From: Limisphaerales bacterium
Lineage (GTDB): Bacteria; Verrucomicrobiota; Verrucomicrobiia; Limisphaerales; UBA11358
Direction of reading: 5' to 3'
NCBI GenBank assembly: GCA_003161635.1
Contig: PMOA01000050.1
Coordinates: 3,091 to 67,090 of the forward strand
DNA length: 64,000 bases
Part shown: piece after piece, positions 29,486 to 44,877 of the stretch
Layout of the letters: every line of letters begins with the position of its first letter
Position numbering within the stretch: the stretch's first letter is position 1
Program-made: the position numbers and the translations under genes
The notes under the pieces: model-generated
Seen by the model: only the letters and a program-made list of their open reading frames with translations
What the model was told of the DNA's origin: nothing
The model's database searches: none

Positions 29486-29516
29486 GAAGAATTGGGAGAA
29501 AAATGGTTTGAACGCT

Positions 29517-29669
29517 CGCCCTCATCCCGGCCTTCTCCCCCAGGAGAAGGAGAATCATTCGCCGTGTATTTGAAATGTCGTGTGACGGGATTGGCCGACA
29601 ATTTGTAGCCAGTCGGAAATCATGCGCTGGCATGTCCTCTCCTTGGGGAGAGGAAACAGGTGAGGGAGG
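29517..29669. repeat. inverted-repeat (MITE-like) element
   Basis: The left arm CGCCCTCATCCCGGCCTTCTCCCCCAGGAGAAGGAGAA pairs imperfectly with the right arm TCCTCTCCTTGGGGAGAGGAAACAGGTGAGGGAGG, about 80 nt away. Confidence 0.7.
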
Positions 29670-29720
29670 TCGTAAATACAAATCAAGAAAATCTAACGAG
29701 CTATTTTCAAGAAACCGGGA

Positions 29721-29778
29721 GGCGACAAAGATTCCGCCCCTCACGGAGCTGGGCGGCGTGCGGTGGCGGGGATTTCAC
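29721..29778. repeat. R2 dispersed repeat, copy a
   Basis: Core GGCGACAAAGATTCCGC, then a G-rich tract, then GGGGATTTCAC. It overlaps the stop codon of 29741..30796. Confidence 0.75.
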
Positions 29779-30796
29779 TCGAATGTTGTTGCCACCATTT
29801 AAGCCAGCGCGCTTTTGCTGCCGCTGGCGTTATGATGTAGATATTTGTTCCCGTCACTTGGAAATTGAAAGGGTCACTCAAATCGCAATAACGAAAAACA
29901 AAATCCCGGTCACTGAGCAGCGCATCATAAACCACTTCATGAACGTCTCTGCCACTAAAGTATGGCGAGAATCGTTTCCGAGCCTCGGTGGAATCTCGAA
30001 ATTTCCAAACAATTCGCTGACCGCCCGGTTTTTGAGATTGAGTCACAATGTTCGTGTCTAAATCAATGAGCTTGTTGATCCGATCGAATCTTTCGTCAGG
30101 TTGCTCTTTCGTGAAAACATATAATTCGCCGATTTCTGTGTTGGCGCCCAGTTCAACGACAGCTACGCGCGCTCCATCCGAATCTTTGGGCAGAGTGCCG
30201 CCAAAAGACGAATTGGTAAGATTATATCGGAAGATGGCATTGACGAGTGGCTTGCATTTGTCGTCGGAAAGATGTCCGAATAGCGTGAACAGATGAGAGA
30301 GGTCATCAGGCCACGGATCGCGCACAAGAAGAAGTATCACCTGATCTCGAAGCCCCTCGTCATTCAACAATTCGTAAAAAATGTTTCGGACCCGCTTGTT
30401 TTTGAATCCCTCATGAAATCGGCCCGCGATTTTGCTTTCGATTCCAATCAGGTGAAGTGTCAGGAGCGCGCCGTAGCGCGCCTTGGTGGATTGGCTGTTC
30501 TTGATGAAACTTAAAAGAGGATCAATTGCCTCCTCGCCGTGAGCTGCGATGGAATACATGTCATCCGTGTAGCCAATCCAATAAGCTTTGCCCGTTTGGA
30601 CTTTTCTCCAATCACTTTCAAGTCTCTGAATGAGTTGAGGCAGCGGTGTGTTTGTATCAATTCCAATGTGCTGCGAGCCACCTTGAACAGCGCGCTCATT
30701 CTTTTCACCGCTGGGATTAACATCCAATATCCATTGCGCGGGTAGTTGTAAAGCTGCCAGGCAAAACAAAGAAAGAAGGAGTAATTTTCTTCTCAT
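29741..30796 (-). CDS. secreted hypothetical protein (351 aa)
   Basis: Signal peptide MRRKLLLLSLFCLAALQLPAQ. Visibly AT-richer codon usage than its neighbours. One HEAT-like helix pair (AIDPLLSFIKNSQSTKARYGALLTLHLIG). No family recognised. Confidence 0.7.
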   Translation of the reverse strand: MRRKLLLLSLFCLAALQLPAQWILDVNPSGEKNERAVQGGSQHIGIDTNTPLPQLIQRLESDWRKVQTGKAYWIGYTDDMYSIAAHGEEAIDPLLSFIKNSQSTKARYGALLTLHLIGIESKIAGRFHEGFKNKRVRNIFYELLNDEGLRDQVILLLVRDPWPDDLSHLFTLFGHLSDDKCKPLVNAIFRYNLTNSSFGGTLPKDSDGARVAVVELGANTEIGELYVFTKEQPDERFDRINKLIDLDTNIVTQSQKPGGQRIVWKFRDSTEARKRFSPYFSGRDVHEVVYDALLSDRDFVFRYCDLSDPFNFQVTGTNIYIITPAAAKARWLKWWQQHSSEIPATARRPAP

Positions 30797-30848
30797 GTTT
30801 TCCTTGGCGCTTTGTAGCTAATTGGTATCTGTGCAGAACTGTCGTCGC

Positions 30849-31646
30849 TTAAAGCGCGTTCCCGGGCAATTCCTTTTTCCGGTACTCGTCGATGTAGATC
30901 GTCATCGGCTCGGGCATCAAATCGCGATATAATCCCATCTTGAAATAAAACCGGCTGGGATGGGTGTAGCCGGTGGTTGGGTTTTCGGGATAAGCGTTGA
31001 CGCCCAAGTAATCTACCACCTGTTTGCTCCCGAGCCACGCCTTGATTCGTCCATTCTCGTTGGTTGAGAAACGGATTTGGAATTTAAAATCGAGCCATTG
31101 GTTTCGCAGCTCCTCCTTCGTTTCATAAAGGGTCGTTTGGTGGGGGCCGATCTGATGGGTGATTTTGAGCTCGCCGGAAACATATCGGATGACCAGCACC
31201 GGACTGTCGTCCGAGCAATTGCCGCCTGCGGGGCAATTCTGCTTCCACTGCGCGATGACCAGCCGCGTCGGCACGATGGGAAAATTCGTCGGGATGAACA
31301 TGCTGAAGGAATATTCGTAAGCTGCGTTTTCTTTCGAGGTCAGCTTTTTGGCCTCCATCAATTCGTCCCGCTCGCTGTCCCGGCTGCCGTTGATTCCCGC
31401 TTCATATGTATCACGGGGGAGAATAGTAATTTTTGCCGCGCCGCGACCTGTGTGAAAAATGTTCGTCTGCATCTGCACCGCGCCGGGAACGAATCGGCTG
31501 GTGTCCCAAACCTTGCTCAAACCAGCCGCTTCAAAGCCGTCGTAAACGTCAATCGCCGGGGCCGTTGCGTTGGTAGCTTGGGCGCGGGAAATGACACCTG
31601 ACAAAAGCGCCCAGCCAATAACCGACATGGTAATGAGTTTAAACAT
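30849..31646 (-). CDS. secreted polysaccharide lyase-like protein (heparin-lyase-I / PF14099-type fold)
   Basis: Signal peptide. ERDELMEA, LVIAQWKQ, SPVLVIRY and FYFKMGLYRD resemble the concanavalin-like Polysacc_lyase family as I recall it. This is a family-level call only. Confidence 0.6.
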   Translation of the reverse strand: MFKLITMSVIGWALLSGVISRAQATNATAPAIDVYDGFEAAGLSKVWDTSRFVPGAVQMQTNIFHTGRGAAKITILPRDTYEAGINGSRDSERDELMEAKKLTSKENAAYEYSFSMFIPTNFPIVPTRLVIAQWKQNCPAGGNCSDDSPVLVIRYVSGELKITHQIGPHQTTLYETKEELRNQWLDFKFQIRFSTNENGRIKAWLGSKQVVDYLGVNAYPENPTTGYTHPSRFYFKMGLYRDLMPEPMTIYIDEYRKKELPGNAL

Positions 31647-31649
31647 AAG

Positions 31650-32888
31650 TCACCTGGGCTCTTCCAACCCGACACCTTGAACGTTGGTCTGCGTGAGGAA
31701 CGGACCTTCGTAGCCGGTTACATGGATATTGTGGAGCACGGCATTGGTGATATTGGCAAGATTGATGCCTTTCGTGCATGTTCCCGTGATGTTTTCAAGG
31801 ATAAGATTTTCGAGCGGTTTCTCTCCGGAAATCTGGCTGACATCGGCAAGGGTTGTGGCAGCGACGCGGACGTTGGAGAAGCTGAAGTTCCTGCCAACGG
31901 GATAGCCGGCCAGACCCTCAACCGGATCGTCCGCCGTGTTGTTGTTACCGCAGCTGATCAAGTTAACGCGGAGGAAGCCGCCCGCCAAAACATCGAGGTC
32001 GTCGCCCGAAATGTTTTCAATGATCCCCGCGCGACCAATGCGTGTCTTTACATACACGCCGTAGGTGTTGCTGGTTAATTTGCAATGTTCGATCCGCACA
32101 TTGCGGATGCCACCGGAGGTCTCGCTGCCAATGCCGATGCAGGCGAAGCGGCGACCGCGCAATGTGCATTGGGTGATCAGCACGTCCTCCGTGGCCTTCC
32201 CCAGACGCGCGCCGTTCAGGCCGCGACCGGATTTCAGGCTGATGGAATCATCGCCCGTGTTGATGTCGCACCCTTCGATGCGGACATTTTTGCAGGAATC
32301 GATGTCAATGCCGTCGCGACCGCCGTTGATGTTCACGTTTTTTATCACAACATCGGTGCAGTAAGTCGGGTGCGTGGCCCAATTGCCGCCTTGCGTGACG
32401 GTGAATCCTTCCCAGCGGACGTCGTTGCATGAGATGGGCTCAAGGACGACAACCCCACGCGGGTTTTGCGGGGCCGCGACGGCGGGATTTCCTTCAATGC
32501 GACCCGGGCCAATGATTCCCGTGTGGTCAACATATGCAGAATAAATGAGCGCGCGACGCCCCGGCTGCCAGCGCCCTTCCCAACGGATGTCCATCATCGG
32601 ATAATCATTTGTATCAGGGCTGCCGGTGATGATGCTGTCTGCTTCGAGCCGGAGAATGGTGTGGTCGCCGATCTGCACGCTGCCGATGAGATATTTGCCG
32701 GCGGGGACAAGGACTTCGCCGCCACCGGAAACGGCGCAGGCGTCGAGCGCTTTTTGGAAGGCGACCGTGTCCTTGTTCGTGCCATCACCAACCGCGCCAA
32801 AGTCACGGACGTTAAACGGAGGTTTCGTCGCGGCGTCAGCGCAGAAAAGCGAGACCGCGAGAAATGAGAGGGAAAATAATTGTTTCAT
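31650..32888 (-). CDS. glycoside hydrolase family 28 (polygalacturonase-like beta-helix)
   Basis: FNVRDFGAVGDGTNKDTVAFQKALDAC, GGRDGIDIDS, NTGDDSISLKSG and IGIGSE motifs. Confidence 0.9.
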   Translation of the reverse strand: MKQLFSLSFLAVSLFCADAATKPPFNVRDFGAVGDGTNKDTVAFQKALDACAVSGGGEVLVPAGKYLIGSVQIGDHTILRLEADSIITGSPDTNDYPMMDIRWEGRWQPGRRALIYSAYVDHTGIIGPGRIEGNPAVAAPQNPRGVVVLEPISCNDVRWEGFTVTQGGNWATHPTYCTDVVIKNVNINGGRDGIDIDSCKNVRIEGCDINTGDDSISLKSGRGLNGARLGKATEDVLITQCTLRGRRFACIGIGSETSGGIRNVRIEHCKLTSNTYGVYVKTRIGRAGIIENISGDDLDVLAGGFLRVNLISCGNNNTADDPVEGLAGYPVGRNFSFSNVRVAATTLADVSQISGEKPLENLILENITGTCTKGINLANITNAVLHNIHVTGYEGPFLTQTNVQGVGLEEPR

Positions 32889-32893
32889 TGGAA

Positions 32894-34414
32894 TTATCGG
32901 GATGAAGGCGACGCGGCCTTGGTGGCCGCCGCAGCGTCGAGTTCTGCTTCCGTTGGAAAATGATCAAACGTGCGCCCGACTTTCATTCCCCGAAGATGCT
33001 TGTCGGCAAAGTCCATCATCGCGGTCCAATCCTCCTGTGTGAATGCGTGCCCATGATGCGCGTAATTTACACCGAGCCGGTCTTTCGCACCGAAAAGTTC
33101 ATAGGCCGGTTGCGCGCCAAGGATTGATTGCTTGACCGCTTCGGGAAAGGAAATCATATCGGTGTCGCCTTCCAACGCGATAAAAGGACGCGGCGCACAG
33201 AGCGCGAGAAACCAGTGTTCGTCGAAGGGCAATTTCTCGCGCTGACCCCAGAACTCATGCAGGTGCGGCGAAAACCAGTTCGGATATTTTTTCTGCATGA
33301 TGTCGAGTGTCTCGCTGTTACGCGGGCCGGCGAAGCGATACGCGCCGATACCGCCGCCGCCGGTCACGACCGGCGCGCCCATCAGACGCTCGTCAAACGC
33401 CGCCGCGATCATGGCGGATTTTCCGTTGCGCGACGCGCCGGTGATGATGAATCTCGTTTTGTCAATCGCGGGATCGGTTTCGAGATAATCGGCGACGCGC
33501 GACGCGCCCCACGCCCAGCCCGCGAGGATGCTCCAATCGTAGCCGGGATAAGCGGGAAAAAACCGTGTATTGCGAAACGCCCAGCTGCCGTCTTCATTCC
33601 GCAACGTCGTGTCCTCGGCGCAATCGTTGGGATTGAACATCACCAGCGCATAGCCGCGACGAAACAATTCACTGTTGCGCTTCGCAATATCTTCGGCATT
33701 GGCCGGTCCGCCAAAACCGCCGCGACCAGCGCGACCATCACGGCCGGTTGTTGCTGATGCTGCCGGCTCCTGACCGGGAACCACCGGCGTCGTGTTGGTG
33801 ACGGTCACAGTCGCACTGGCGTTCGTTGCCGGGCCGACTACGAGTAAAACGTCTTGTCCTTTGCCTTGGTTTGGGCCTTGCGGCAGGCGCGGCAACGGCG
33901 TCGCGCCGGGCGGCGTGCCGCTCTGCGAGATGATGGCCGGGAACGGCCCTTTGCTGTCGGTGGGCGTGAAGATGCCGATGTTCAATTCCAGTTCTCTTTT
34001 CGGCCCGAACGTCAGTTGCACCAGCCGATACTTCACTTTTCCATCCAGCACCAACTGCGATTTGATCTCGTGCCCTTTCACGTTGCCTGGCGGCGGCGGC
34101 ATCTGGCCGACAGCGTAATACTCGAGAATTTTTTTCATCTCCTCGCGGCGCTTTTTCCATTGTTTAACCGTTGTGACTTTTTGCCCGTTGTTCATCGTCA
34201 TCACGTCGGGCATCCCGGTGCGAACCGGCAAATCATTCACGCCCGGCAACGTTCCCATCGTAGTCTTGATTGGAGGCAATGGAATTTCTCGCGGGTCTGG
34301 CCCGGCAACGGAGTTGGAAGACTGGGCTTGTGCTGCGTCAGCCCACAATCCGATGGAGATTGTTGCAACTAAGACGGTTAAAACACTAAACAGCCAGGTC
34401 TGCCGGTGATTCAT
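32894..34414 (-). CDS. carbohydrate esterase, CE15 glucuronoyl-esterase-like
   Basis: Signal peptide. ITGASRNGKSAM resembles the CE15 G-C-S-R-x-G-K nucleophile box, with a C-terminal HHGH. An alpha/beta-hydrolase order is plausible. Confidence 0.7.
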   Translation of the reverse strand: MNHRQTWLFSVLTVLVATISIGLWADAAQAQSSNSVAGPDPREIPLPPIKTTMGTLPGVNDLPVRTGMPDVMTMNNGQKVTTVKQWKKRREEMKKILEYYAVGQMPPPPGNVKGHEIKSQLVLDGKVKYRLVQLTFGPKRELELNIGIFTPTDSKGPFPAIISQSGTPPGATPLPRLPQGPNQGKGQDVLLVVGPATNASATVTVTNTTPVVPGQEPAASATTGRDGRAGRGGFGGPANAEDIAKRNSELFRRGYALVMFNPNDCAEDTTLRNEDGSWAFRNTRFFPAYPGYDWSILAGWAWGASRVADYLETDPAIDKTRFIITGASRNGKSAMIAAAFDERLMGAPVVTGGGGIGAYRFAGPRNSETLDIMQKKYPNWFSPHLHEFWGQREKLPFDEHWFLALCAPRPFIALEGDTDMISFPEAVKQSILGAQPAYELFGAKDRLGVNYAHHGHAFTQEDWTAMMDFADKHLRGMKVGRTFDHFPTEAELDAAAATKAASPSSR

Positions 34415-34616
34415 GATTCGTCTTCATCCTGCGCCGACAGGATGGAAATGGCAATGGCGGGATTCTTGTTTCTGGCAAGGCCAAACGCGAGTTCGAGGCC
34501 GGAGTTGCGGGGTGGCTGGCGGTCGAGTGGTCAAAATTCTGTAACCCGGGAGAATTTCCAGCGTCTGTTCCAGTGCAGTTTAAACCAACAAATTCAACAT
34601 TTATTACAATACGAAC

Positions 34617-34904
34617 ATGAAGAAACTATTAGTAGCAGCCCTCGGGCTCCTCTGTGCAACCGCAATCGTGGTCCAGGCCCAGGACGCCAAACCCAAGAAG
34701 GCGTTGACCCCGGAACAACAGACGGTCATGAAGGAAATGCTGGCGAAATACGACACCAACAAGGATGGCAAGCTCGACAAGACCGAGCGCGCAGCCATGA
34801 CCCAGGAAGACAAAGACAAGATGACCAAGGCCGGCTTGGGCAAGAAAAAACCTGCCGCCCCTGCCGATGCTTCCACCAATGCTCCGGCTGCCACCGACAA
34901 GTAA
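34617..34904 (+). CDS. small secreted EF-hand protein
   Basis: Signal peptide and a canonical 12-residue loop, DTNKDGKLDKTE. Confidence 0.8.
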   Translation: MKKLLVAALGLLCATAIVVQAQDAKPKKALTPEQQTVMKEMLAKYDTNKDGKLDKTERAAMTQEDKDKMTKAGLGKKKPAAPADASTNAPAATDK

Positions 34905-34928
34905 TTCCCTTCCCGGTCTTAAACCATT

Positions 34929-34963
34929 ACGCTCCACTGAATCCAGTGGAGCGTTTTTTTTTT
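34929..34963 (+). terminator. intrinsic terminator of the EF-hand gene
   Basis: ACGCTCCACTG-AATC-CAGTGGAGCGT followed by T9. Confidence 0.8.
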
Positions 34964-35044
34964 CAGCGGGATGCCGACTTCAACGCAATGGCTTTGGGCA
35001 TCGCGGCCAAAATCACCAGGTTTGTTTGTGGAAATACATTCCCG

Positions 35045-38000
35045 TTACTGTGTTTGATAGCCTTGACTGGCAAGCGACTTGGTCAGGGAATTGACCAGGT
35101 CGGCCAGGGTCTGGCCGGTATTATTGGCGGTCTGGGTGCTTTGCGGCACGAAGGTGTAAATCGAAGAGGATTCGCTGAGGACCAGGTTGCCGGTTTGTGA
35201 ATCCGGATAGACATGGGTGGCATCGCTGGCAAAGGTGTTGGGAAATGAAAAATACTTTTTCTTGCCAATGGTGAGCACCGTGTTCTGCCCCTTGTGCAGA
35301 TCCGCCCAGATGTTCGGATAGCCATTGGTATCAATGCCCTGCCCCGCCTGTCCCAGAACGGTGAAGCTCTGGTTGCTAACCCCGGAAATGGTGATCCACA
35401 AATACTCCGGCAAGGGATTTACCCAGTATTGTTTTTTCCCCTTGATCGTGGCCCAGCCGACGAACACGCCATTAGTGTTGTCGGGAATGAAAAACATCTG
35501 CCCGGCGTAGGCATACGAAAGTGCCAGGCCGGACGTGATGATCTTTTGGATGCCGGCATATTTGTAAACCAGAATGTTCTGGGCAATCACCGTGACACTG
35601 GCGTTGGAGCTCGTGATGCTTCCATAGGGCGTGGTGATGGTCACGGCATAATTGCCCGACTGATTCGGATGAAGGTTCGTCAGGGTCAACGTGGCATTCG
35701 TGGCCCCAAAAATGTTTGTCCCGTTAAAACTCCATTGATAACTGAAAGGTCCGGTCCCGCCCGCAACCACGGACAAAACAATGCTTGAGCCTTCCACGGT
35801 GGTTTGATTCACCGGCTGCACGGCGATCCCGGGGGGCAAAGGCCCGGCGCATTTGCCCGCGCTGCCGGCGTTGTAGATAGCTGCAATTTCATTGGAAGAC
35901 AGAGCCCGGTTGAAAATCGCAGATTCATCTATTACGCCTTGGTAATAAAGATCGCCAAAATCCATTCTTCGCCCAAGCAGGAACGAGGTATCAGTTTTTG
36001 GTGTGAAGCTGCCCAAATTGCCCGACGATACAAGAGAACCGTTGTAATATATTTTGCCCACCCCACTAGCCTTGTCGTAGGTAAGGGCTACATGCTGAAG
36101 TATGCCGGCCTGAACGATTCCTGTAGGCGATGCAAAAATGTGAAGGCCACCCACCGAATCAACAATGTTCGCATAAATGCATCCCGGACCTCCAACCCCG
36201 CCGAAAACCCCCGAGATCCAAAAATGAGCTCCATTGTGGATACTGCCACCGTTTCCGCTCCACTCCATCAGTGGTTCCTGATTGGCCACAGATGTCGGGG
36301 CTATCCAACATTCCAACGTCATTCCTTGGCCGGCTCCGACATTAAGTGAAGAAGAAGCAGGCACACTTATTCCGTCATCCACACCATCAAAATTGAAGGC
36401 GTGCCCCACTTCGCCGGCGGTAAAGTTTATTCCCCCCTGCAAAAATCCGTTGTTGTTGCCCATGATGTCGTTGGCATTGCCTTCGCCCGGCCACCAGCTA
36501 ACCAGGCCCGATGGCGGGGACACGCAGGCGACGGCGCATTTGCCCGCGCTGCCGGCGTTGTAAATGGCCTGAACTTCAGCCGCTGTAAGGGCGCGGTTGT
36601 ACAGGGAAATCTCGTCTATATCTCCGGTAAACGGAAAATTGTTTTGACCGTCATTGAGATTCCCGATGCCGACGCCGGGAGAATCCTCGGGAATCAGATC
36701 GCCAAACGGTCTGACGGCCGTCACGGTCTGGCTGGCAAGTTGCCCGTTTATATATAACTTCATGATGCCAGATTCCCCATCCCAGGTGGCCGCCACATGA
36801 TACCACTGGTTATAGTTAATGTTGGTTCCAACAAAAGCGGAATTGCCCGACTCATCCTCAATATAAAAACGAAGGTTATTGTTTCCCTGCATGGACAGGA
36901 CGTAGGGATCCAGTCCTGGACGGTTGTCTCCCCGCCAGAAGATGCAGTATCCGTCTCCTCGCGGCCGGATCCAACCCTCGATGGACAAGGAGTTGGTCAG
37001 CACATAAGCCTGCTGGTCGGGAATCTGAATTCCGGTGTAAGTGCCGTAGGGAAAATTATTCGGGTCACAGGCAAACGCCTGGCCGACCACGCCGCTGGTA
37101 AAGGTCACGTTTTCAAGCAGACCGTTGTTCATGCCGACGATGTCATTGGCATTGCCTTCGCCCGGCCACCAGCCCACCAACCCTGAAGGCGCAGGCGTGC
37201 AGGAAGGCGGACACTTTCCTGCACTGCTGGCATTGTAGATGGATTGAATCTCAGCCGTGGTGAGGGCGCGGTTGTACAGGGAAATCTCGTCTATATCTCC
37301 CGTGAACGGAAAATTGTTTTGACCGTCATTGAGATTCCCGATGCCGACGCCGGGAGAATCCTCGGGAATCAGATCGCCAAACGGTCTGACGGCCGTCACG
37401 GTCTGGTCGGCAAGCACCCCGTTGGTATAAATGCTCATGGTCCCGGTGCTGCCATCCAGGGTCGCCGCCACATGCGTCCATTGGTTGTAGGTCAGGTAAG
37501 TTCCAACCGTGACTGTGTTGCCATCCTGATCACAAATCTGGAACTTGATATTGTTATTGCCCCACATGCCGATGAAGTAGGGATCCATGCCCGGACGGTT
37601 GTCTCCCCGCCAGAAGATGCAGTATCCGTCTCCCCGCGGCCGGACCCAGCCCTCGATGGACAAGGAGTTGGTCAGCACATAAGCCGGCTGGTCGGGAATC
37701 TGGATTCCGGTGTAAGTGCCATAAGGAAAATTATTCGGGTCACAGGCAAACGCCTGGCCGACCACGCCGTTGGTATAAGTGATATTTTGTGCGACCCCGT
37801 TGTTCCCCAATACGCTGTCGAGTGTGTTGCCATCGCCTTTCCACCAACCCACCAAGCCGGACGGCGGCGTGACGCAACTGGGGTCTTGAATCGGCGTGGG
37901 CGGCATGATCGGCGTGGGCAGCATGGGTCGCGTGGGCGGCATGATTGGCGTAGGCGGAACGCGCTGATACCGCCTAATATCCAAACCTTGAGCTGATACG

Positions 38001-38071
38001 CTGGCAACCAAGCTGAAAACCAAGAGGCCCGGCACGATGAACGACTTGAGAACTTTTGACGATCTTTTCAT
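35045..38071 (-). CDS. large secreted protein: Pro-rich leader, 3 x LamG/concanavalin-like lectin domains, Ig-like domain, C-terminal domain
   Basis: Signal peptide. Each of the three repeated units carries GLVGWW.G.GN..D, ...SIEGW.RPRG, ...FPF.G.IDE.S.YNRAL. An Ig-like segment (VEGSSIVLSVVAGGTGPFSYQWSFNG...SGNYAVTITT) follows. Confidence 0.9.
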   Translation of the reverse strand: MKRSSKVLKSFIVPGLLVFSLVASVSAQGLDIRRYQRVPPTPIMPPTRPMLPTPIMPPTPIQDPSCVTPPSGLVGWWKGDGNTLDSVLGNNGVAQNITYTNGVVGQAFACDPNNFPYGTYTGIQIPDQPAYVLTNSLSIEGWVRPRGDGYCIFWRGDNRPGMDPYFIGMWGNNNIKFQICDQDGNTVTVGTYLTYNQWTHVAATLDGSTGTMSIYTNGVLADQTVTAVRPFGDLIPEDSPGVGIGNLNDGQNNFPFTGDIDEISLYNRALTTAEIQSIYNASSAGKCPPSCTPAPSGLVGWWPGEGNANDIVGMNNGLLENVTFTSGVVGQAFACDPNNFPYGTYTGIQIPDQQAYVLTNSLSIEGWIRPRGDGYCIFWRGDNRPGLDPYVLSMQGNNNLRFYIEDESGNSAFVGTNINYNQWYHVAATWDGESGIMKLYINGQLASQTVTAVRPFGDLIPEDSPGVGIGNLNDGQNNFPFTGDIDEISLYNRALTAAEVQAIYNAGSAGKCAVACVSPPSGLVSWWPGEGNANDIMGNNNGFLQGGINFTAGEVGHAFNFDGVDDGISVPASSSLNVGAGQGMTLECWIAPTSVANQEPLMEWSGNGGSIHNGAHFWISGVFGGVGGPGCIYANIVDSVGGLHIFASPTGIVQAGILQHVALTYDKASGVGKIYYNGSLVSSGNLGSFTPKTDTSFLLGRRMDFGDLYYQGVIDESAIFNRALSSNEIAAIYNAGSAGKCAGPLPPGIAVQPVNQTTVEGSSIVLSVVAGGTGPFSYQWSFNGTNIFGATNATLTLTNLHPNQSGNYAVTITTPYGSITSSNASVTVIAQNILVYKYAGIQKIITSGLALSYAYAGQMFFIPDNTNGVFVGWATIKGKKQYWVNPLPEYLWITISGVSNQSFTVLGQAGQGIDTNGYPNIWADLHKGQNTVLTIGKKKYFSFPNTFASDATHVYPDSQTGNLVLSESSSIYTFVPQSTQTANNTGQTLADLVNSLTKSLASQGYQTQ

Positions 38072-38257
38072 AACTTGTTCCTATTGCTTAAATTGGCTTG
38101 AAGCTCCACTTCATCATTTTCCCAAGTTATGTCAACCAAATTGATTATTAGCTGCTCAATCAACCGGCACCCCTCCAACACGAAGAACCAAGGGATTCAA
38201 CCGCCCGCTCGGTACGCTACGCTCATCAGGCCACAGGCTCGACGCTAAATCGAAACC

Positions 38258-39010
38258 TCAGTCCCAGACTCCCAGTTGGACGAGTTCCTTGGCCGCCGTT
38301 TTCGTCCAGTCGTGGCGGTTGGCTTTGGGGCTGGCCGGACTGGGATGCAGGATTTGCCCGACGCGAATCTTCGTGTTTTCACAAACCAATCGTCCGCGTT
38401 CCGCCGCGAAGCCGCCAATCCCAACCAACCATTCCGGCTGGAGAATTTCCAGGACGCGGCGCAAATGCTCGTCACAGATTTCAAACAGACGGTCGCGTTC
38501 GGCCCGGGGCAGTTTGTCGGGAGTTTGATTGCGACCGCTCGCTTCGCAGAATGCCAGCGGACAATAATTCGCCACGAAATGACCGGTAAAGAATCTTTCC
38601 GGCGAGTCAAAGCGTTCGGCGAAAAGTTTCCACAATCGCCGGCCGCTGACTTCGGAGCGCGGGCAATTAAAACCCAGGATGGGCCGTTTGGGATGTTCCG
38701 AACGGGGCCTTTCGATTCTGGCGCGAATGCCCAGCCAATCGCGCACGGCGGCAACTTCACCGAAGGGCACACCGGTTTGCACCATGCCGAACGGCCCGGG
38801 GTTCATTCCGAGAAACACCACCCGCTTCCGGCCGTTGCTGAACCGGCGCAAGTATTCCTCGTGCGCCTTCCACGCATAAGTCAGCGGATTATAGACGTGC
38901 GCGACGGGCGGCTGGAATTTCAAGCGACCGACTTGGGCCGAAAGCCTGCGAGCGGCGGCAATGAGACGTTTGCTGGTGGCAGAAAGTCGAGGTAACTCAG
39001 CTTTTCTCAT
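38258..39010 (-). CDS. SMUG1-family (family 3) uracil/5-hydroxymethyluracil DNA glycosylase
   Basis: FLGMNPGPFGMVQTGVPFGEVAAVRDWLGI and ILHPSPASPKANRHDW match the two SMUG1 signature motifs closely. Confidence 0.9.
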   Translation of the reverse strand: MRKAELPRLSATSKRLIAAARRLSAQVGRLKFQPPVAHVYNPLTYAWKAHEEYLRRFSNGRKRVVFLGMNPGPFGMVQTGVPFGEVAAVRDWLGIRARIERPRSEHPKRPILGFNCPRSEVSGRRLWKLFAERFDSPERFFTGHFVANYCPLAFCEASGRNQTPDKLPRAERDRLFEICDEHLRRVLEILQPEWLVGIGGFAAERGRLVCENTKIRVGQILHPSPASPKANRHDWTKTAAKELVQLGVWD

Positions 39011-39435
39011 GATGAGATTTCCGGCAAAATTTCGAGTGTCAGAGAATAATCTTTGTAACCAACCGCCCGCCAGAACGCGACCGCCGCTTCATTTTGAACC
39101 AAAACTTCAACCGTCAGCCGCTTATTTTTCGGCCAGATTTTTGAGCGCAGAATTTCCACGGCCTGACGGCCAATCCCCTGCCGGCGCCGGTTCCGGACGA
39201 CGGAAAGCTGCCGCAAATAAATCTCCTCCGGCTGCTCGCGATACAAAGCGTAAGCAACCACTTCACCGTCATTTTCAAAAAGCACCGCCGCGTATTCGGA
39301 CGCCAGCCAGCCTTTCATCCGCTGCTCCAGCTCAGGAACCGTCATGCGATTCCTGTGCCCTTCGTCACGAATCAACTGATGGTTGAGTTCCGCCAGCAGG
39401 GCACAATCGTTCAATGTTGCGCGCCGGAAGTTCAA
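39007..39435 (-). CDS. GNAT family N-acetyltransferase (copy 1)
   Basis: The RNRRRQGIGRQAVE acetyl-CoA (Q/R-x-x-G-x-G/A) motif. The TTG start overlaps the ORF6N stop (TTGA), and its own stop overlaps the SMUG1 start (ATGA). Confidence 0.85.
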   Translation of the reverse strand: MNFRRATLNDCALLAELNHQLIRDEGHRNRMTVPELEQRMKGWLASEYAAVLFENDGEVVAYALYREQPEEIYLRQLSVVRNRRRQGIGRQAVEILRSKIWPKNKRLTVEVLVQNEAAVAFWRAVGYKDYSLTLEILPEISS

Positions 39436-40064
39436 GTTTTCTTCCTTCCTTTGGCTCCCGCTTCATCCTCCGGCCGGACGTGAAAGCCAATCTGCCGTTT
39501 CGGCGGTTCGGGCGGCAGCGGCGGCGGGTCGAGAATTTCCATGACGCGCCGGAGCACGTCCACAATCACGCTCTCATGCACATCCAGACGGGCAGTTAAT
39601 TTCTTTTCCAAGTCGGCCAATTGGCGCGCGAGTTCCTTCGTGCCGCCGAGCAGGTCGCGCATCTTCACGAACGCGCGCACCACGAACACGCTCATGCGCA
39701 CGGCCTCCGGGCTGTTGAGAACATTGGCCGCCATGATCGCGCCGTTTTCGGTGAAGGCGTAAGGAAGAAAGCGGACATTGCGTTTATATGCGGTCGCAAT
39801 TTGCGACCGCATGGCTGACGCGGTTTTGGATGCGGTCGCAATTTGCGACCGCATCGGCATCAACGTTTCAGCCTCTTCAATTGTAAGCTGGAACAAGAAA
39901 TCAGCTGGGAATCGCTTTGCGTTACGCTTGATCTGCTCATTCAGCCGCCTTGTTGGCACGCCATAAATACGCGCCAAGTCAAAGTCGAGAATGACCTTCT
40001 GCCTGCGAATTGTGCGGATTACCGAACTGATGTCATCTATACGCGATAAACTTTGTTGGCTCAT
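39432..40064 (-). CDS. ORF6N (KilA-N-related) DNA-binding domain protein
   Basis: From ATG 40064: IRTIRRQKVILDFDLARIYGVPTRRLNEQIKRNAKRFPADFLFQLT ... RSQIATA (twice) ... LPYAFTENGAIMAANVLNSPEAV. Confidence 0.8.
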   Translation of the reverse strand: MSQQSLSRIDDISSVIRTIRRQKVILDFDLARIYGVPTRRLNEQIKRNAKRFPADFLFQLTIEEAETLMPMRSQIATASKTASAMRSQIATAYKRNVRFLPYAFTENGAIMAANVLNSPEAVRMSVFVVRAFVKMRDLLGGTKELARQLADLEKKLTARLDVHESVIVDVLRRVMEILDPPPLPPEPPKRQIGFHVRPEDEAGAKGRKKT

Positions 40065-40329
40065 GTTCGTTGCATCTTTGAACCGGTCACAATTTGTGAC
40101 CGCATACCTCTTTCCTCTTGATATCGCAATTTGCGATATCAAAGCGATTACTCGTTGCTCAAATGAACCGATCGCAAATTGCGATAGGTTCAAAGCTCAA
40201 CTCGAAGTACCAATTTGGCACTTCAAGTTTTCAAATTCTCTGCGCCTAAGCCTGTCGTTGGTGATTCGGTGATCCGGTCACAATTTGTGACCGGCTGGCT
40301 GCCCGAATCAAGGTCGCATTTTGCGACCT
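39790..40329. promoter_or_regulatory. array of 7 related palindromes (core TC[GA]CAA-A/T-TTG[CT]GA)
   Basis: Positions are 39790-39810, 39832-39852 (both inside the ORF6N CDS), 40084-40102, 40121-40139, 40171-40185, 40274-40294 and 40311-40329 (upstream of it). Confidence 0.8.
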
Positions 40330-40386
40330 TAAATAGCGGAGAAGATCTCGTCCCCGATGGGGCGAAAGGGATTAAAGGAAGCGGTT

Positions 40387-40448
40387 GGCGACAAAGATCC
40401 CGCTCCTCACCGGACGGGGCGGCGGGCTACGGCGGGGGATTTGAACAC
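40387..40448. repeat. R2 dispersed repeat, copy b
   Basis: GGCGACAAAGATCCCGC, then a G-rich tract, then GGGGGATTTGAACAC. Confidence 0.75.
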
Positions 40449-40607
40449 AGTCGTGCGCCTCGTCAAAGTTGTTCGGTACAAATGGCGGCGGTGAACCGCA
40501 CGCAGTCCAAACGCTTCGCGAGGTTCAGAGACGCCTGGCTGTCGCGTCAGTCCCGCTTTGCGGGAGAGTGCGGTTGCTTTAGCACCGCTTTCTTGCACGT
40601 CTGGCGA
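40448..40607. repeat. R3 dispersed repeat, copy i (~160 bp)
   Basis: CAGTCGTGCGCCTCGTCAAAGTTGT...CGCAGTCCAAACGCTTCGCGAG...TCCCGCTTTGCGGGA...CACGTCTGGCG. Collinear with 42583-42742. Confidence 0.8.
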
Positions 40608-40631
40608 GGCTGGGGTTTTAAGAAACCGGAT

Positions 40632-40706
40632 GGCGACAAAGATTCCGCTATACACGGTGCGGGGTGGCGGGTGGTGGCGGCGGGCGATGGCGGGGGATTT
40701 GAAAAC
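40632..40706. repeat. R2 dispersed repeat, copy c
   Basis: GGCGACAAAGATTCCGC, then a long G-rich tract, then GGGGGATTTGAAAAC. It lies 67 nt downstream of the stop of 40773..41903. Confidence 0.75.
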
Positions 40707-40772
40707 AGACATGCACGGTTGGCGCTGGTAGGGTCAGGCCGTGGGCTGTTTGGACCGTGTGCTCCGGTCTGG

Positions 40773-41903
40773 TTATTCGGAATTGAAACCCGAAACCCGG
40801 CTTCTCAACGGCATTCTGATGGTCCGCGCCGGGAGCGGTTCGACCCGGCCACCGGCGTTCGCCGCATATTCGGCGTAGATGGCATTGACTTCATCCGCCG
40901 ACAAGGCCCGGTCATACAAAGCCATCTCATCAATTTCACCAATGAACGGGAAATTGTTTCCCCCGTCATTGACGTTGCCGATACCGACGCCGGGAGATTC
41001 ATCGGCCAGCAAGGCACCAAACGGACGCACGGTTGTGACGGTCTGCGCTGCCAGCACGCCGTTGGTGTAAAGGCTCATCGTCCCCGTGCTGTCATCCAAA
41101 ACACCCGCCATATGAATCCACGCACCCAGCCCCACGGGCGTGCGCACCGCAGCCGTGTTGGCGTCCGCACCACAGATGGTAAATACAAGATTGAGGTGAC
41201 CATCCAAGGACAAACAATACGGGTCAAGGCCCGGACGATGGTCGCCGCGGAAAAAAATCACATAACCATTCCCGCGCGGACGGATCCAGCCTTCGATGCT
41301 CAAGGATTGGGTCAGGGCATAGACGGGCTTGTCGGGAATCTGCACGCCGACGTAAGTGCCGTAAGGGAAACTGTCCGGAGCAAAGGTAAACGCCTGCCCG
41401 ACCACCCCGTCCGTGAAGCTCACATTTTGCATGACCCCGTTGTTGCCGCCCACGGAATCCACCGCATTCCCTTCGCCTGACCACAAACCAATCAACCCGT
41501 CTCTAGGTCTGCCGGTCTTTCCGAGAACCGACACCCGCACGCTTTTAATCAAGGAAACCGGCAGCTTGACATCGCCATACGACGTCTCTATCCGGATCTC
41601 CTTCATGGCAAACTGAACCGCCAACGTGTCGCCACTGGACGTGGTCAGTTTTGCGGAATTGGTTTTAGCCTGACATTCGACCGAACGGACCCGGTCCAGC
41701 GGCAGTTTCATGTCGCCCAAAACATCGGAGCGGAATTTAAAAGCATCGTCACCACCTTTGCCGATGATGCGCGATCCGTCCCACAACTCAACGGTCAAAC
41801 GGAAGCCGGTCGGTTTATTGGTGGCCGCTGGTGCTGCTTGAAGCTTATGAAAACCCAACACCAAAACCGTCAGCAGACAGAAAAAACGCAGGATGGCATT
41901 CAT
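40773..41903 (-). CDS. secreted protein with one LamG/concanavalin-like lectin domain
   Basis: From ATG 41903 there is a signal peptide (MNAILRFFCLLTVLVLGFHKLQA). The C-terminal domain is a paralogue of the repeats in 35045..38071 (GLIGLWSGEGNAVD...SIEGWIRPRGNGY...FPFIGEIDEMALYDRAL). Confidence 0.85.
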   Translation of the reverse strand: MNAILRFFCLLTVLVLGFHKLQAAPAATNKPTGFRLTVELWDGSRIIGKGGDDAFKFRSDVLGDMKLPLDRVRSVECQAKTNSAKLTTSSGDTLAVQFAMKEIRIETSYGDVKLPVSLIKSVRVSVLGKTGRPRDGLIGLWSGEGNAVDSVGGNNGVMQNVSFTDGVVGQAFTFAPDSFPYGTYVGVQIPDKPVYALTQSLSIEGWIRPRGNGYVIFFRGDHRPGLDPYCLSLDGHLNLVFTICGADANTAAVRTPVGLGAWIHMAGVLDDSTGTMSLYTNGVLAAQTVTTVRPFGALLADESPGVGIGNVNDGGNNFPFIGEIDEMALYDRALSADEVNAIYAEYAANAGGRVEPLPARTIRMPLRSRVSGFNSE

Positions 41904-41959
41904 GATTAGGAGTCTGCATCCAATCGCACCTTCCGTCAAGGATAAGCATTTCAAACCCG

Positions 41960-42077
41960 CCGGGTCCAACGCAAGGATGGAGCCTCCCGAACACCCCCGC
42001 CCGCACGGCCGGAATCGGGTCGGTTTCCCTCGTGGCGATGTGCAGGTTGTAGAGGCTCACGGGCGATTTGTGTCCGG
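41960..42077 (-). pseudogene. decayed fragment of the argG 3' region (remnant a)
   Basis: In the argG-like frame it reads [20 protein letters not shown], against arg[24 protein letters not shown] similarity to 44945-45063 is visible by eye. The boundary is at CCGG 42074-42077. Confidence 0.6.
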
Positions 42078-42488
42078 TAAAATTTCCAATGTCAAACAAT
42101 AATCTTTGTAGCCGACGGCCCGCCAGAACGCGACCGCCGCTTCATTTTGAACCAGAACTTCAACTGTCAGCCGCTTGTTTTTCGGCCAGATTTTTGAGCG
42201 CAGAATTTCCACGGCCTGCCGGCCAATCCCCTGCCGGCGCCGGTTCCGGGCGACGAAAAGTTGGCGCAAATAAATTTCCTCCGGCTGCTCGCGATACAAG
42301 GCGTAAGCCACCACTGCACCGTCATTTTCAAACAGCATCGCGGCGTATTCGGACGCCAGCCAGCCTTTCATCCGCTGCTCCAATTCGGGAACCGTCATGC
42401 GATTTCTGTGTCCCTCGTCGCGGATCAACTGATGATTGAGTTCAGCCAGCAGAGCGCCATCGTCCAACGTTGCTCGTCGAAAGGTCAT
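42057..42488 (-). CDS. GNAT family N-acetyltransferase (copy 2, chimeric 3' end)
   Basis: 9 substitutions against copy 1 over the first 137 aa. The last 6 codons and the stop are read out of frame from the argG-derived fragment. Confidence 0.8.
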   Translation of the reverse strand: MTFRRATLDDGALLAELNHQLIRDEGHRNRMTVPELEQRMKGWLASEYAAMLFENDGAVVAYALYREQPEEIYLRQLFVARNRRRQGIGRQAVEILRSKIWPKNKRLTVEVLVQNEAAVAFWRAVGYKDYCLTLEILPDTNRP

Positions 42489-42582
42489 ACGAAACCCTGA
42501 CAGAAACTGTGCGTTTTGGCGAGGTCACGCTTTGCCGCACCGGGACGGGAATGATTAAAGGAAGCGGGTGGGGCTTTGCGCG

Positions 42583-42742
42583 CAGTCGCGCGTCTCGTCA
42601 AAGTTGTCCGGCGGGAACAGCGGCGGTAAACGCGCCGCAGTCCAAACGCTTCGCGAGCTTCGGAGACGCCTAGCTGTCGCGCCAGTCCCGCTTTGCGGGA
42701 GAGTGCGGATGCTTCAGCACCGCTTTCTGACACGTCTGGCGG
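42583..42742. repeat. R3 dispersed repeat, copy ii
   Basis: Collinear with 40448-40607 and shares CGCAGTCCAAACGCTTCGCGAG and TCCCGCTTTGCGGGAGAGTGCGG. Confidence 0.8.
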
Positions 42743-42768
42743 AGCGAAAGGGGTTAAAGGAAGCAGGT

Positions 42769-42833
42769 GGCGACAAAGATTCCGCTCCTCATGGGGCGGG
42801 GCGGCAGGCGGTGGCGTGGGATTTTACATTCAC
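42769..42833. repeat. R2 dispersed repeat, copy d
   Basis: GGCGACAAAGATTCCGC, then GGGGCGGGGCGGCAGGCGGTGGCGTGGG, then ATTTTACATTCAC. It abuts or overlaps the stop of 42830..43672. Confidence 0.75.
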
Positions 42834-43672
42834 ATGTCTTCTGGCCTCAATCTTCTTGGTATGAAGACCCCGGCTGGGGGTGGTGGCTGTCCAATAGTTG
42901 AAGATGATTTGAAGACTTTCTCAAAGTGACCGAGTGAAAGGGCAAAGAATTGGTCAATGCTTTTTGCAGAATTGGTGGCGAAATCCTGCAAGTAGGAATC
43001 TGACAGAATATTCACAATTGTATGCGGCTTGCCAGCAATTGGGTTTCGCCAAAGCAAAGTTCCGCGAGAGGTTTCAGTAACAGAAATCGACGCATCATCC
43101 TGAAGAACACACGAAAACAATTTACCTTCGACAACAACAACAGGAAAGAAGAAGGCGTATTCCAGCTCACCCGCCTCCTGTGCCTCAGCAGTTACGGCTG
43201 CGCCGACACTGGTCAAGGCCATATAAACGACATCGTTCCCAGTTGTGAACGCTTGCGTTGCTCCGTAGGCAGCCGGCTCAGTCACTCTAAATAAGTCAAG
43301 ATCTTGGATGTTCTTTCGTTGTGCAAACCCCTCCAGAAAAACAGCAGCCCTTCTGGTAGCGGTTCTTTGGGCGACTCGCGCTGGGGGCGCAAGTCGCAGA
43401 TCAGAGGAACAGAACATGAGCCAAGGTTTGCTACGCGACAACTTGCACTCGATCATAAACTGAACACGAACGAGCCTCCCCTCGATTTCACGATCAATGT
43501 GCGCAACGACATCTATCTCGCGTTGGGCATTTGTCGTTGGGTCGCGATAATAGTCGGATTGCCTGACCCGGAATCCAGCCCTGCGAAATGCACAGGCCAC
43601 CCGCATTTCAAGCGGATAGCCTTGTTCGTCTAACCAAGCGCGAACTTTGTTTTCTAGTTCAGACATGGCCAA
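42830..43672 (-). CDS. PD-(D/E)xK (Mrr-like restriction-endonuclease fold) N-terminal domain protein with unknown C-terminal domain
   Basis: LENKVRAWLDEQGYPLE...REIDVVAHIDREIEGRLVRVQFMIECKLS fits the D...(D/E)-x-K core of the Mrr_cat-type nuclease fold. Codon usage is AT-richer than the flanks. Confidence 0.7.
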   Translation of the reverse strand: MAMSELENKVRAWLDEQGYPLEMRVACAFRRAGFRVRQSDYYRDPTTNAQREIDVVAHIDREIEGRLVRVQFMIECKLSRSKPWLMFCSSDLRLAPPARVAQRTATRRAAVFLEGFAQRKNIQDLDLFRVTEPAAYGATQAFTTGNDVVYMALTSVGAAVTAEAQEAGELEYAFFFPVVVVEGKLFSCVLQDDASISVTETSRGTLLWRNPIAGKPHTIVNILSDSYLQDFATNSAKSIDQFFALSLGHFEKVFKSSSTIGQPPPPAGVFIPRRLRPEDM

Positions 43673-43693
43673 ACAGATTTTTGACAGTGCATC

Positions 43694-43826
43694 TTATTTC
43701 TTCTTCCCGTGCACCAGCGCCGCGATCCCGCTTGCGGGACGTAGCGCGTTGAGCCGGATGAAGCCGGTGGCGCGCCCTGGTTGTGGTCCGCACGGGCGGG
43801 ATCGGTTCGGTTTCCATCATGGCAAT
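43694..43826 (-). pseudogene. decayed duplicate of the argG 3' end including its stop (remnant b)
   Basis: TTATTTCTTCTTC...GCGTTGAGCCGGATGAAGCC...CCTGGTTGT...GGTTTCCATCATGGCAAT is collinear with 44886-45001 (TTATTTCTTCTTC...GCGTTTAACCGGATGAAGCC...CCTGGTTGT...GGCTTCCATCGTGGCAAT). Confidence 0.8.
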
Positions 43827-43870
43827 CAGCAAACTCCCGTTCTCCCTTTCTGGCAAGGCCAATCGCAAAT

Positions 43871-43925
43871 GGCGACAAAGATTCCGCTTCTAATTGGGGC
43901 AGAGTGGTGGGGTGAAGAGTTGGTT
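43871..43925. repeat. R2 dispersed repeat, copy e (more diverged)
   Basis: GGCGACAAAGATTCCGC followed by a G-rich tract, 5 nt downstream of the stop of 43930..44877. Confidence 0.6.
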
Positions 43926-43929
43926 TGAG

Positions 43930-44877
43930 CTAGAAATGACGCCAATAGCCGAGGGACTCTAGAATAAGCCGACGAGCAAGATGTTGAACATTTACAACAT
44001 CATATGGTGACAACCCTCTTGTTAAATGTTTAACACTATGAGAGGCAACGCAATCTCGAAGCCAGTCTGCATATGCGATGGCATCACTTATGTGTAACTC
44101 CGAGTCTCGAACGGTCCATGCAGACCATGTCGCTTTGCCTTTCGCCGGCACAGGCCTTTTCTTTTCTATTCTTCGTTTAGGACCACGCATAGTCCATAGG
44201 ATTGTTTCACTAAGATTAACACCTGCATTTTGAAGCCGGGATTCCAATTCTTGTTTTACAATAGGATTCCATTGACCATTAATCCGACTTGGTCGTTGTG
44301 ATGATGCTCGAATCTCCAGTCCGAGTTCCTCAATTGCTGAGTAGGCCGAGATAATTGCGTGGGAAAAAGTGATATGGTCTCTAGGAAACTGAGAAATGGG
44401 GAGATTGGGTGATCTGAACGGCTCAAGGTCAGCGCCATGAATAGCAAAGAGGGATGTGCTAAATCGGTATTTAGCAATAGCGTAGATCCATTTGCGCCGC
44501 CGTGTAGCTTTTTTAGCAATAGAACAAGCGCGGGGAAATCCTGTTATGCAATAGTTTCCCTCCGAAAGGGCTTGGCGTTCGTCTTGATTCATCCAACTAG
44601 GTTCAGTCTTGTTGTGAGCGACTAAATGCATCGGGAAGATTGGAGGATTTCCCAGTAGTACTTCGTGACACCCCTCGATCAAATCTAGAGTGCGTTGAGC
44701 CGAATACCAATTCTTTGCGTAAACGACTACTTCCCGTCCATCATGGACCGAAGAGGGTTTTTCCCTCTGATACTCAAACTTAACCTTCCAACCAGATCCT
44801 ATTAACGAATGCGAAACTCCATCACCCTCATCTCCAATTGTGATCAATCCCGTCCAAAAACGTTCTTGCTTTGCCAT
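43930..44877 (-). CDS. hypothetical protein (315 aa) with C-terminal Rx5H (HEPN-like) motif
   Basis: Uninterrupted ATG ORF that starts 8 nt after the argG stop. It has the lowest GC of the window by eye. The C-terminal helix is ISDAIAYADWLRDCVASHSVKH. No family recognised. Confidence 0.8.
   Translation of the reverse strand: MAKQERFWTGLITIGDEGDGVSHSLIGSGWKVKFEYQREKPSSVHDGREVVVYAKNWYSAQRTLDLIEGCHEVLLGNPPIFPMHLVAHNKTEPSWMNQDERQALSEGNYCITGFPRACSIAKKATRRRKWIYAIAKYRFSTSLFAIHGADLEPFRSPNLPISQFPRDHITFSHAIISAYSAIEELGLEIRASSQRPSRINGQWNPIVKQELESRLQNAGVNLSETILWTMRGPKRRIEKKRPVPAKGKATWSAWTVRDSELHISDAIAYADWLRDCVASHSVKHLTRGLSPYDVVNVQHLARRLILESLGYWRHF

Follow-up and report, generated by a model that had tools for sequence, protein, structure and literature searches.

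How does a short non-coding repeat come to lie, always in the same direction, at the ends of accessory genes? This question is raised by R2, a repeat family found in a 64,000-nucleotide (nt) stretch of DNA from a Limisphaerales bacterium (Verrucomicrobiota; contig PMOA01000050.1 of assembly GCA_003161635.1, positions 3,091 to 67,090), hereafter the window. An earlier note on this stretch had proposed four roles for the repeat, i.e., a Rho-utilisation (rut) or 3'-untranslated module, a G-quadruplex (G4) former, a cassette-boundary recombination site, and a tRNA T-loop serving as attachment (att) core. We favour the third over the other three. We tentatively read R2 as the conserved 3'-terminal module of the cassettes of an integron-like, integrase-less array, with a core that serves as recombination joint. 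We propose this because R2 is restricted to one locus, is co-oriented with the genes, lies in an array that is entered through argG with relics left behind, has a core constantly tied to the same linker, shows shuffled flanks, and is conserved at its core.

In the window, the 17-nt core of R2, GGCGACAAAGAT[TC]CCGC, has exactly five matches, on the + strand only (at 29721, 40387, 40632, 42769 and 43871). When up to three mismatches are allowed, seven matches are found against 0.87 expected, a number attained in 0 of 100 shuffles, and a hidden Markov model (HMM) profile built on about 100 R2 copies retrieves the same five copies only (E <= 9e-9; next match at E = 1). The pattern search, the shuffles and the profile thus bear out the five copies with a shared core that had been described. 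The G-rich tract and GGGATTT-type end attributed to the family are present in copies 1 to 4; in copy 5 only a degenerate end remains (GGTTTGAGC). The geometry relative to stop codons is also as the note had claimed, four of the five copies lying within 0-67 nt of minus-strand stops or overlapping them. Indeed, copy 1 (29721-29778), the nearest to rtcB and co-oriented with the minus-strand genes, contains the stop codon of a 351-aa orphan (TCA, 29741-29743), so that the final 12 codons of this open reading frame (ORF) are made of R2 sequence. Copy 4 (42769-42833) overlaps the stop of the 278/280-aa gene, whose ORF ends at 42830-42832. Copy 3 (40632-40706), with the longest G tract, follows the stop of a 398-aa LamG gene (ORF end at 40773) by 66 nt, and copy 5 (43871-43925), with its degenerate G tract, follows that of the 315-aa gene (ORF end at 43930) by 4 nt. 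Copy 2 (40387-40448), a core variant with C at position 13, is not behind a gene; it lies 245 nt past copy 3, downstream of a 177-nt repeat called D8 and upstream of the ORF6N gene region.

The conserved part of R2 extends over about 27 nt, (G)GT GGCGACAAAGATTCCGC TCCTCAC GG, with near-maximal information from position -1 to about +24. The information content falls abruptly on the outer side (left, in + sense) and gradually into the G tract. Read in gene sense, R2 consists of a C-rich tract, variable and often truncated, which abuts or supplies the stop codon, and then of the core of about 27 nt, GTGAGGAGCGGAATCTTTGTCGCC(ACC). The core is about 94% identical across copies and across lineages in which argG differs by 8-17%, while the adjacent non-coding sequence is unalignable. 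Copies lying outside the search pattern have on average about one mismatch in the 17-mer, and their flanks lose all conservation. The G tract is often truncated at arbitrary points and joined directly to unique gene ends (class C), this erosion reaching the edge of the core and never entering it; in a second class of copies, the tract is replaced by a structured module, GTAGCGTCG...CGACGCTAC.

To follow R2 outside the window, the bare 17-mer was scanned against the GTDB genomes (596 Gb) and a longer R2 pattern against the metagenomes of the Joint Genome Institute (JGI). From the first scan, about 9 loci proved true, and all belong to metagenome-assembled genomes (MAGs) of Verrucomicrobiota or Limisphaerales. 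As a marker on its own, the 17-mer was unspecific at this scale, most of the 120 genome matches being chance or gyrA codons (GMATKIPPHN). The longer pattern recovered 103 metagenome stretches, chiefly from peat, bog and soil. Together with the MAG contigs of Verrucomicrobiota (about 9), these stretches hold about 109 non-redundant R2 copies, in a clade of soil and peat Limisphaerales-type Verrucomicrobiota. For gene calling in these loci, we used an ORF caller based on codon usage and trained on the window. In 87 of 97 cases, the gene that flanks R2 on its G-tract side turns its 3' end toward the repeat; where genes are in tandem, the orientation of R2 is biased 45 to 2; and 25 copies lie between convergent genes, against 5 between divergent ones. 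In about 10 cases, the TCA of the box beside the core serves as the stop codon; most other stops are found 35-110 nt from the core start. Hence the association with gene 3' ends and the fixed orientation of R2 hold clade-wide.

Such a strict co-orientation with the upstream gene (87/97, the 25 convergent contexts included) would also suit an activity in RNA or in transcription, an explanation that we consider unlikely. R2 would then act at cassette 3' ends, either by loading Rho on its C-rich, G-poor tract or through its core as a sequence-specific pause, processing or protein-binding site, and would insulate each cassette from the next one and from the convergent rtcB. The start of R2 0-110 nt past the stop codon, a basal state in which the core lies directly behind argG, and the fact that a downstream cassette (F4) can have its own sigma-70-like promoter all agree with it. 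So does the composition of the mRNA-sense tract, with about twice as much C as G (mean 17 C versus 8.5 G in 38 nt); like rut regions, R2 gives a C-rich, G-poor and unstructured RNA tract downstream of the stop. However, this tract is short and often truncated, and it is the least conserved and often deleted part of R2, the core being retained. Rut sites have no conserved sequence; the conserved part of R2 is, on the contrary, a specific 27-mer, and its C tract is dispensable. R2 does not provide a hairpin followed by a U tract either: the intrinsic terminator scan found 28 sites versus 27 expected, i.e., the chance level, with two weak matches at copy 1 only. Folding z-scores are close to 0 on both strands, no Rfam covariance model matches R2 even at E <= 1, and a general 3'-end signal would be expected genome-wide, not in one locus only. 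The Rho or 3'-untranslated module of the earlier note therefore keeps its orientation and its C-rich mRNA tract in its favour, and has the variable truncation of the tract and the single-locus restriction against it. The G-quadruplex idea is weak. A strict G4 motif is present in only 12 of 103 copies, too few for a general feature of R2, and the G-rich strand, taken by the note for the non-template strand, is in fact the template for these minus-strand genes.

The genomic distribution of R2 is narrow. All loci with a true R2 that are 9.8 kb or longer contain argG, rtcB or known island genes (by similarity to the window and by tblastn with ArgG and RtcB); the exceptions are L143, where R2 is at the extreme end of the stretch, and two chance matches inside ORFs. 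Likewise, the true GTDB matches with readable context are all in the argG-rtcB locus, L079 being not placeable. R2 is thus the signature repeat of one variable island between the convergent genes argG and rtcB, and not a genome-dispersed repeat. About 30 loci were oriented on argG, and in each argG is followed by strain-specific, mostly co-oriented genes and then by the convergent rtcB, the interspersed R2 cores all sharing the direction of argG and of the cassettes. The shortest island measures 1.9 kb (L135) and the longest, that of the window, 15 kb; in a more distant lineage, with argG 83-84% identical, an exact core is found 60 nt past the argG stop with no intervening cassette. In the window, the conserved anchor and entry point of the array is argG (argininosuccinate synthase, 44886-46112, - strand), and the array is closed by rtcB (390 aa, 28313-29485, + strand). 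Between them, the variable island (29741-44877) is on the - strand throughout and carries the 315-aa, 278-aa, GNAT, LamG, ORF6N, GNAT, UDG, three LamG, GCE, GH28, polysaccharide lyase (PL) and 351-aa orphan genes. The G+C content at third codon positions (GC3) of these genes is 0.38-0.69, against 0.78-0.80 for rtcB and argG, and is 0.38-0.48 in the three island genes without a Pfam match; over the arrays, the cargo is at 0.58-0.65 against 0.77 in the flanking genes. The cargo varies by strain: PadR with a membrane protein, ClpP-like proteins, esterases, GH43, GH115, GNAT, ORF6N, LamG, UDG, as well as toxin-antitoxin-like genes and insertion sequence (IS) fragments.

The arrays keep a record of how they grow. 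Displaced copies of the last ~117 nt of argG are found inside the arrays, in the window and in about 20 other loci, each directly upstream of a cassette, the formerly first one. Most of these relics share the same start, ATTGCCACGATGG, at position 144 of the last 260 nt of argG. This is the case for relic 1 of the window (43694-43826, - strand), which starts with ATTGCCA; relic 2 (42017-42077, - strand), fused to the end of the GNAT gene at 42057-42488, and the relic of L086 start about 20 nt earlier (positions 120 and 125). Because the relics share their start point and stand each just upstream of a cassette, the array grows by repeated insertion into the argG 3' end, the units bringing a replacement 3' end. 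The newest unit adjoins the live argG (in the window, the 315-aa gene starts 8 nt past the argG stop) and the prior argG 3' end is pushed downstream as a relic. Direct repeats of the argG 3' end thus flank the inserts, as for att sites in gene 3' ends; this applies to the array and not to R2. Relic 1 also departs from the live argG of the window and matches the ArgG C-termini of other lineages (DPIPPVRDHNQDD), therefore 3' ends have been exchanged between lineages.

R2 enters this picture through the sequence that joins it to the relics. In the window, a conserved linker (class i; 43827-43870, - strand; mRNA sense ATTTGCGATTGGCCTTGCCAGAAAGGGAGAACGGGAGTTTGCTG) connects the R2 core to the displaced argG 3' end, and the same core-linker-relic block is found in other arrays with about 20 different cargos. 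Among the outer flanks, the linker (...CTGGCAAGGCCAATCGCGAAT) is present in 30 copies, in 13 of which an argG relic is visible at most 110 nt away; a D8-type repeat start is found in about 42 copies, and the others are regions upstream of F6 or of ORF6N.

We then compared the flanks of 103 non-redundant copies pair by pair (score threshold 35, null maximum 14). Only one distal flank is in common in 206 pairs (the outer flank in 175, the gene side in 31), both flanks in 16, and neither in 5031 of the 5253 pairs. In core-anchored alignments, 22 of 34 pairs have their outer break 0-8 nt away from the core, and the gene-side break is spread over 1-70 nt. Individual modules behave in the same way. 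In four arrays, the 3' end of the F5 gene is fused to the tract at one and the same point, and a different outer module comes after it each time; the F6 upstream region, together with the core that it reaches, does not vary and is preceded by four different partners; and relic, linker and core are common to about 20 non-redundant copies, the cargo side being different in each. Upstream and downstream modules are thus joined in differing combinations at the core. The pairs sharing neither flank, taken alone, are what one would expect of a classical mobile short repeat, such as a miniature inverted-repeat transposable element (MITE), a repetitive extragenic palindromic (REP) sequence or an attC site, inserted independently behind many genes. 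We regard this explanation as largely refuted and very improbable. Independent insertion predicts pairs that share neither or both flanks, and the excess of one-sided sharing (206 pairs against 16) does not fit it; moreover, R2 is not dispersed, with one locus per genome, has no terminal inverted repeats, target duplications or palindrome, and carries no RYYYAAC/GTTRRRY pair at its two ends.

In the recombination-joint reading, the core would be one half, on the cassette side, of an attachment site whose recombinase is encoded elsewhere; alternatively, it could offer RecA a short portable homology (~27-60 nt). Cassettes would be excised, inserted and exchanged between strains via the core, recombination at the core would be the cause of its conservation, and the entry of all units in the direction of argG would set the fixed orientation of R2. 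A more specific version, possible and rather doubtful at this stage, is that core and linker together are the attC-equivalent of a non-integron system, in which a recombinase encoded elsewhere inserts small integrase-less cassettes, in a single orientation, into the argG 3' end and so builds the strain-specific array. Such a system would be categorically new only given a demonstrated dedicated non-integron recombination machinery.

Several observations weigh against recombination at the core. The Pfam annotation of the genes of the 64-kb window contains no recombinase, integrase or resolvase, and a crude regular-expression search of about 0.5 Mb of R2 loci found no tyrosine (box II) or serine recombinase motif. 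Folding of long and short R2 forms, on both strands and as DNA and RNA, gave z-scores from -0.94 to +0.77 (200 shuffles), with no hairpin or inverted-repeat architecture. R2 is behind only about one quarter of the island genes; several insertions into argG (the ORF6N, F28 and GNAT units) have no R2 beside the relic; and among 7 distinct loci compared, 4 have the upstream boundary of the F4 (PadR) cassette elsewhere than at the R2 core. The R2 loci were collected by exact matching of the core, so that conservation looks higher than it is. Lastly, 15 public contigs have an identical ArgG, and the 8 contexts shown of these agree in their cassette order; recent cassette turnover, looked for among these strains, was not seen, the arrays being all alike in these 8 contexts and no ongoing event being caught.

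This stability at strain level, and the fact that no enzyme was found, would agree with another explanation, improbable in our view, i.e., that R2 is a passive non-coding scar without function of its own, copied with the cassettes by Campbell-type insertions and unequal crossing-over and kept alike by gene conversion. It would be one module of a mosaic resembling bacterial interspersed mosaic elements (BIMEs), together with D8 and small palindromes. Around R2 there is indeed a mosaic of modules, with D8, D17, the linker and a palindromic mini-insert of 22 nt. The two D8 copies of the window are on the + strand (40430-40606 and 42565-42741, 177 nt each); the first, hairpin-rich, forms with R2 a unit of about 245 nt. 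Tandem R2+D8 units spaced by 245-321 nt are found in the window and in L122, L180, L210, L211, L223 and L135. The D17 module, GGGACGGGAATGATTAAAGGAAGCGGGTGG, which normally precedes the core, is present in the window at 42542-42571 (+ strand), here without an R2 body. A 1.05-kb segment with the 351-aa orphan splits the centre of the mini-insert at the gene-proximal end of R2 copy 1; in L219 and L074, which are without this orphan, R2 comes directly after the polysaccharide-lyase gene. However, a passive scar would not readily account for a core about 94% identical across lineages with argG differing by 8-17% when the neighbouring non-coding sequence is unalignable, nor for a tract erosion that stops at the core, nor for an outer core edge that is a recurrent breakpoint.

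Can R2, as a candidate recombination joint, be assigned to a known class? Judging from its arrangement, R2 would work most like the attC site of a sedentary chromosomal integron or of a CALIN (cluster of attC sites lacking integron-integrases; Cury et al. 2016, PMC4889954), and the entry of the units resembles that of integrative elements targeting gene 3' ends. As in integrons and CALINs, R2 arrays hold co-oriented, mostly one- or two-gene accessory cassettes at a fixed chromosomal place, with the repeat at the cassette 3' end, which is the layout expected of attC-type arrays; the repeat often overlaps the stop codon and is conserved at its outer edge and variable inside, the units enter at one end, and the flanks are recombined at the repeat. 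Unlike in integrons, R2 has no R''/R' boxes (RYYYAAC/GTTRRRY) and no imperfect hairpin, there is no intI in the window or in the loci, entry takes place inside a housekeeping gene 3' end that is regenerated with relics left, some cassettes have their own promoter, and only part of the gene junctions carry R2. The absence of the attC consensus, already stated in the earlier note, is confirmed. In gene sense, a GTTCAAC lies near the start of the long form and the far end, CTTTGTCGCC, is without GTTRRRY; in the opposite sense, a GTTGAAC has no partner at GGCGACAAAG. The small stem CCGCTCC/GGGGCGG exists in only part of the copies, and an attC-like or REP-like hairpin was rejected, R2 giving no folding signal.

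Some integrative elements insert in the 3' end of a tRNA gene or, like e14 and phage 21 in icd, of a protein-coding gene and bring a replacement 3' end, and the tycheposons of Prochlorococcus accrete in tandem at one att site. In a similar way, the displaced argG 3' ends start mostly from one point, the newest unit is nearest to the live gene, and the cargo is in tandem. R2 arrays differ from these elements by their small units (0.9-2 kb), which carry no integrase, and by R2 itself, which is not the duplicated target sequence but a separate conserved block on the cassette side. REPs are palindromic, occur by hundreds per genome, often in inverted pairs, and are tied to RAYT transposases in enterobacteria and pseudomonads. 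Like REPs and BIMEs, R2 is short, extragenic, just past stop codons and set in mosaics with other small modules; unlike them, it is non-palindromic, uniformly oriented and confined to a single locus. Indeed, no REP/BIME palindrome (20-40 nt) was found in R2, whose core has no dyad symmetry, and the dispersal typical of REPs is absent, all five copies being within 15 kb of the 64-kb window and the long loci being all linked to argG, rtcB or the island. The search for terminal inverted repeats, target duplications and dyad symmetry in R2 was negative, one edge being sharp and the other ragged.

Other origins were considered and rejected. There is no tRNA gene in the window, ARAGORN finds none in the argG-rtcB arrays, and a tRNA or T-loop relic was discarded as the origin of R2; the resemblance of the R2 end to a tRNA T-loop or att core, suggested by the note, is unsupported, with no tRNA nearby and with a duplicated att-like sequence that is the argG 3' end, unrelated to R2. 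R2, or core plus linker, is not a diverged piece of argG, the alignment scores being inside the shuffled range. Both + sense frames are open through the R2 tract; a coding repeat was nevertheless discarded, since the tract indels are not multiples of three and there is no conserved start and no codon periodicity. No convincing sigma-70 or sigma-54 promoter was seen by eye in the core, the promoter scan being at chance level, and a phage origin was set aside, R2 and the linker being both absent from IMG/VR.

A full-text literature search on Verrucomicrobia, gene cassettes and attC returned no description of this locus. If the core is a recombination site, this would be a second, independently evolved route to gene-cassette arrays, with a new type of site, a housekeeping gene through which units enter and no integrase nearby, in a lineage of soil and peat that is abundant but uncultured. 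The combination of argG, the 27-mer and rtcB would then be a simple marker for retrieving strain-variable accessory genes from metagenomes, and would allow one to follow gene flow in these populations. If R2 is instead a signal for RNA 3' ends, its degree of sequence specificity would be unusual, and it would be linked to genes acquired by horizontal transfer.

Several smaller features of the repeat and of its surroundings were noted. D8 is always contiguous with R2 and has no Rfam match. Some R2 copies have the palindromic mini-insert of 22 nt, CACTCGCGAAAGCTTTCGGAGT, between GGGGGATTT and GAACAC, and others do not (window 29770-29782; L219 4170-4200). Beside rtcB (29500-29700), the window holds small repeat modules, including GAACGCTCGCCCTCATCCCGGCCTTCTCCCCCAGGAGAAGGAG and the hairpin CCTCTCCTTGGGGAGAGG, which are also found beside R2 in L210, L211, L180 and L206.

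As for the cargo, ORF6N is the most frequent and usually comes first after argG. In and upstream of the ORF6N gene of the window (39783-40332), the palindrome ATGCGGTCGCAAATTGCGACCGCAT occurs four times, together with AAGGTCGCATTTTGCGACCTT; inside the ORF, these palindromes encode RSQIAT-type peptides in either direction, and they may be operators or binding sites. The promoter found ahead of the F4 (PadR) cassette is TTGACA-17-TATTGT. The two GNAT genes of the window (39007-39435 and 42057-42488) are 92% identical in nucleotides, and L148 is precisely without the first copy, between the ORF6N stop and the UDG start (stop and start codons overlapping by 4 nt); therefore a whole gene has been gained or lost without involvement of R2. 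DDE-type transposase fragments, judged by eye, are present in two arrays (L056 6917-7854; L184 5331-6268) and fit the view that the island collects mobile DNA in general. A secreted 1008-aa protein (35045-38071) has an immunoglobulin (Ig) domain and three LamG repeats of 675 nt, one of which shares 71-73% identity with the 398-aa LamG gene of the cassette at 40773-41969. The sole strong canonical terminator of the island (34929-34962, + strand; an 11-bp stem followed by T8) is placed between the LamG and GCE genes, behind an ORF of 95 aa on the + strand. Finally, upstream of argG (46333-49019), the window carries three tandem prepilin-type paralogues (DUF1559) with a period of 1009 nt and an N-terminal methylation motif.

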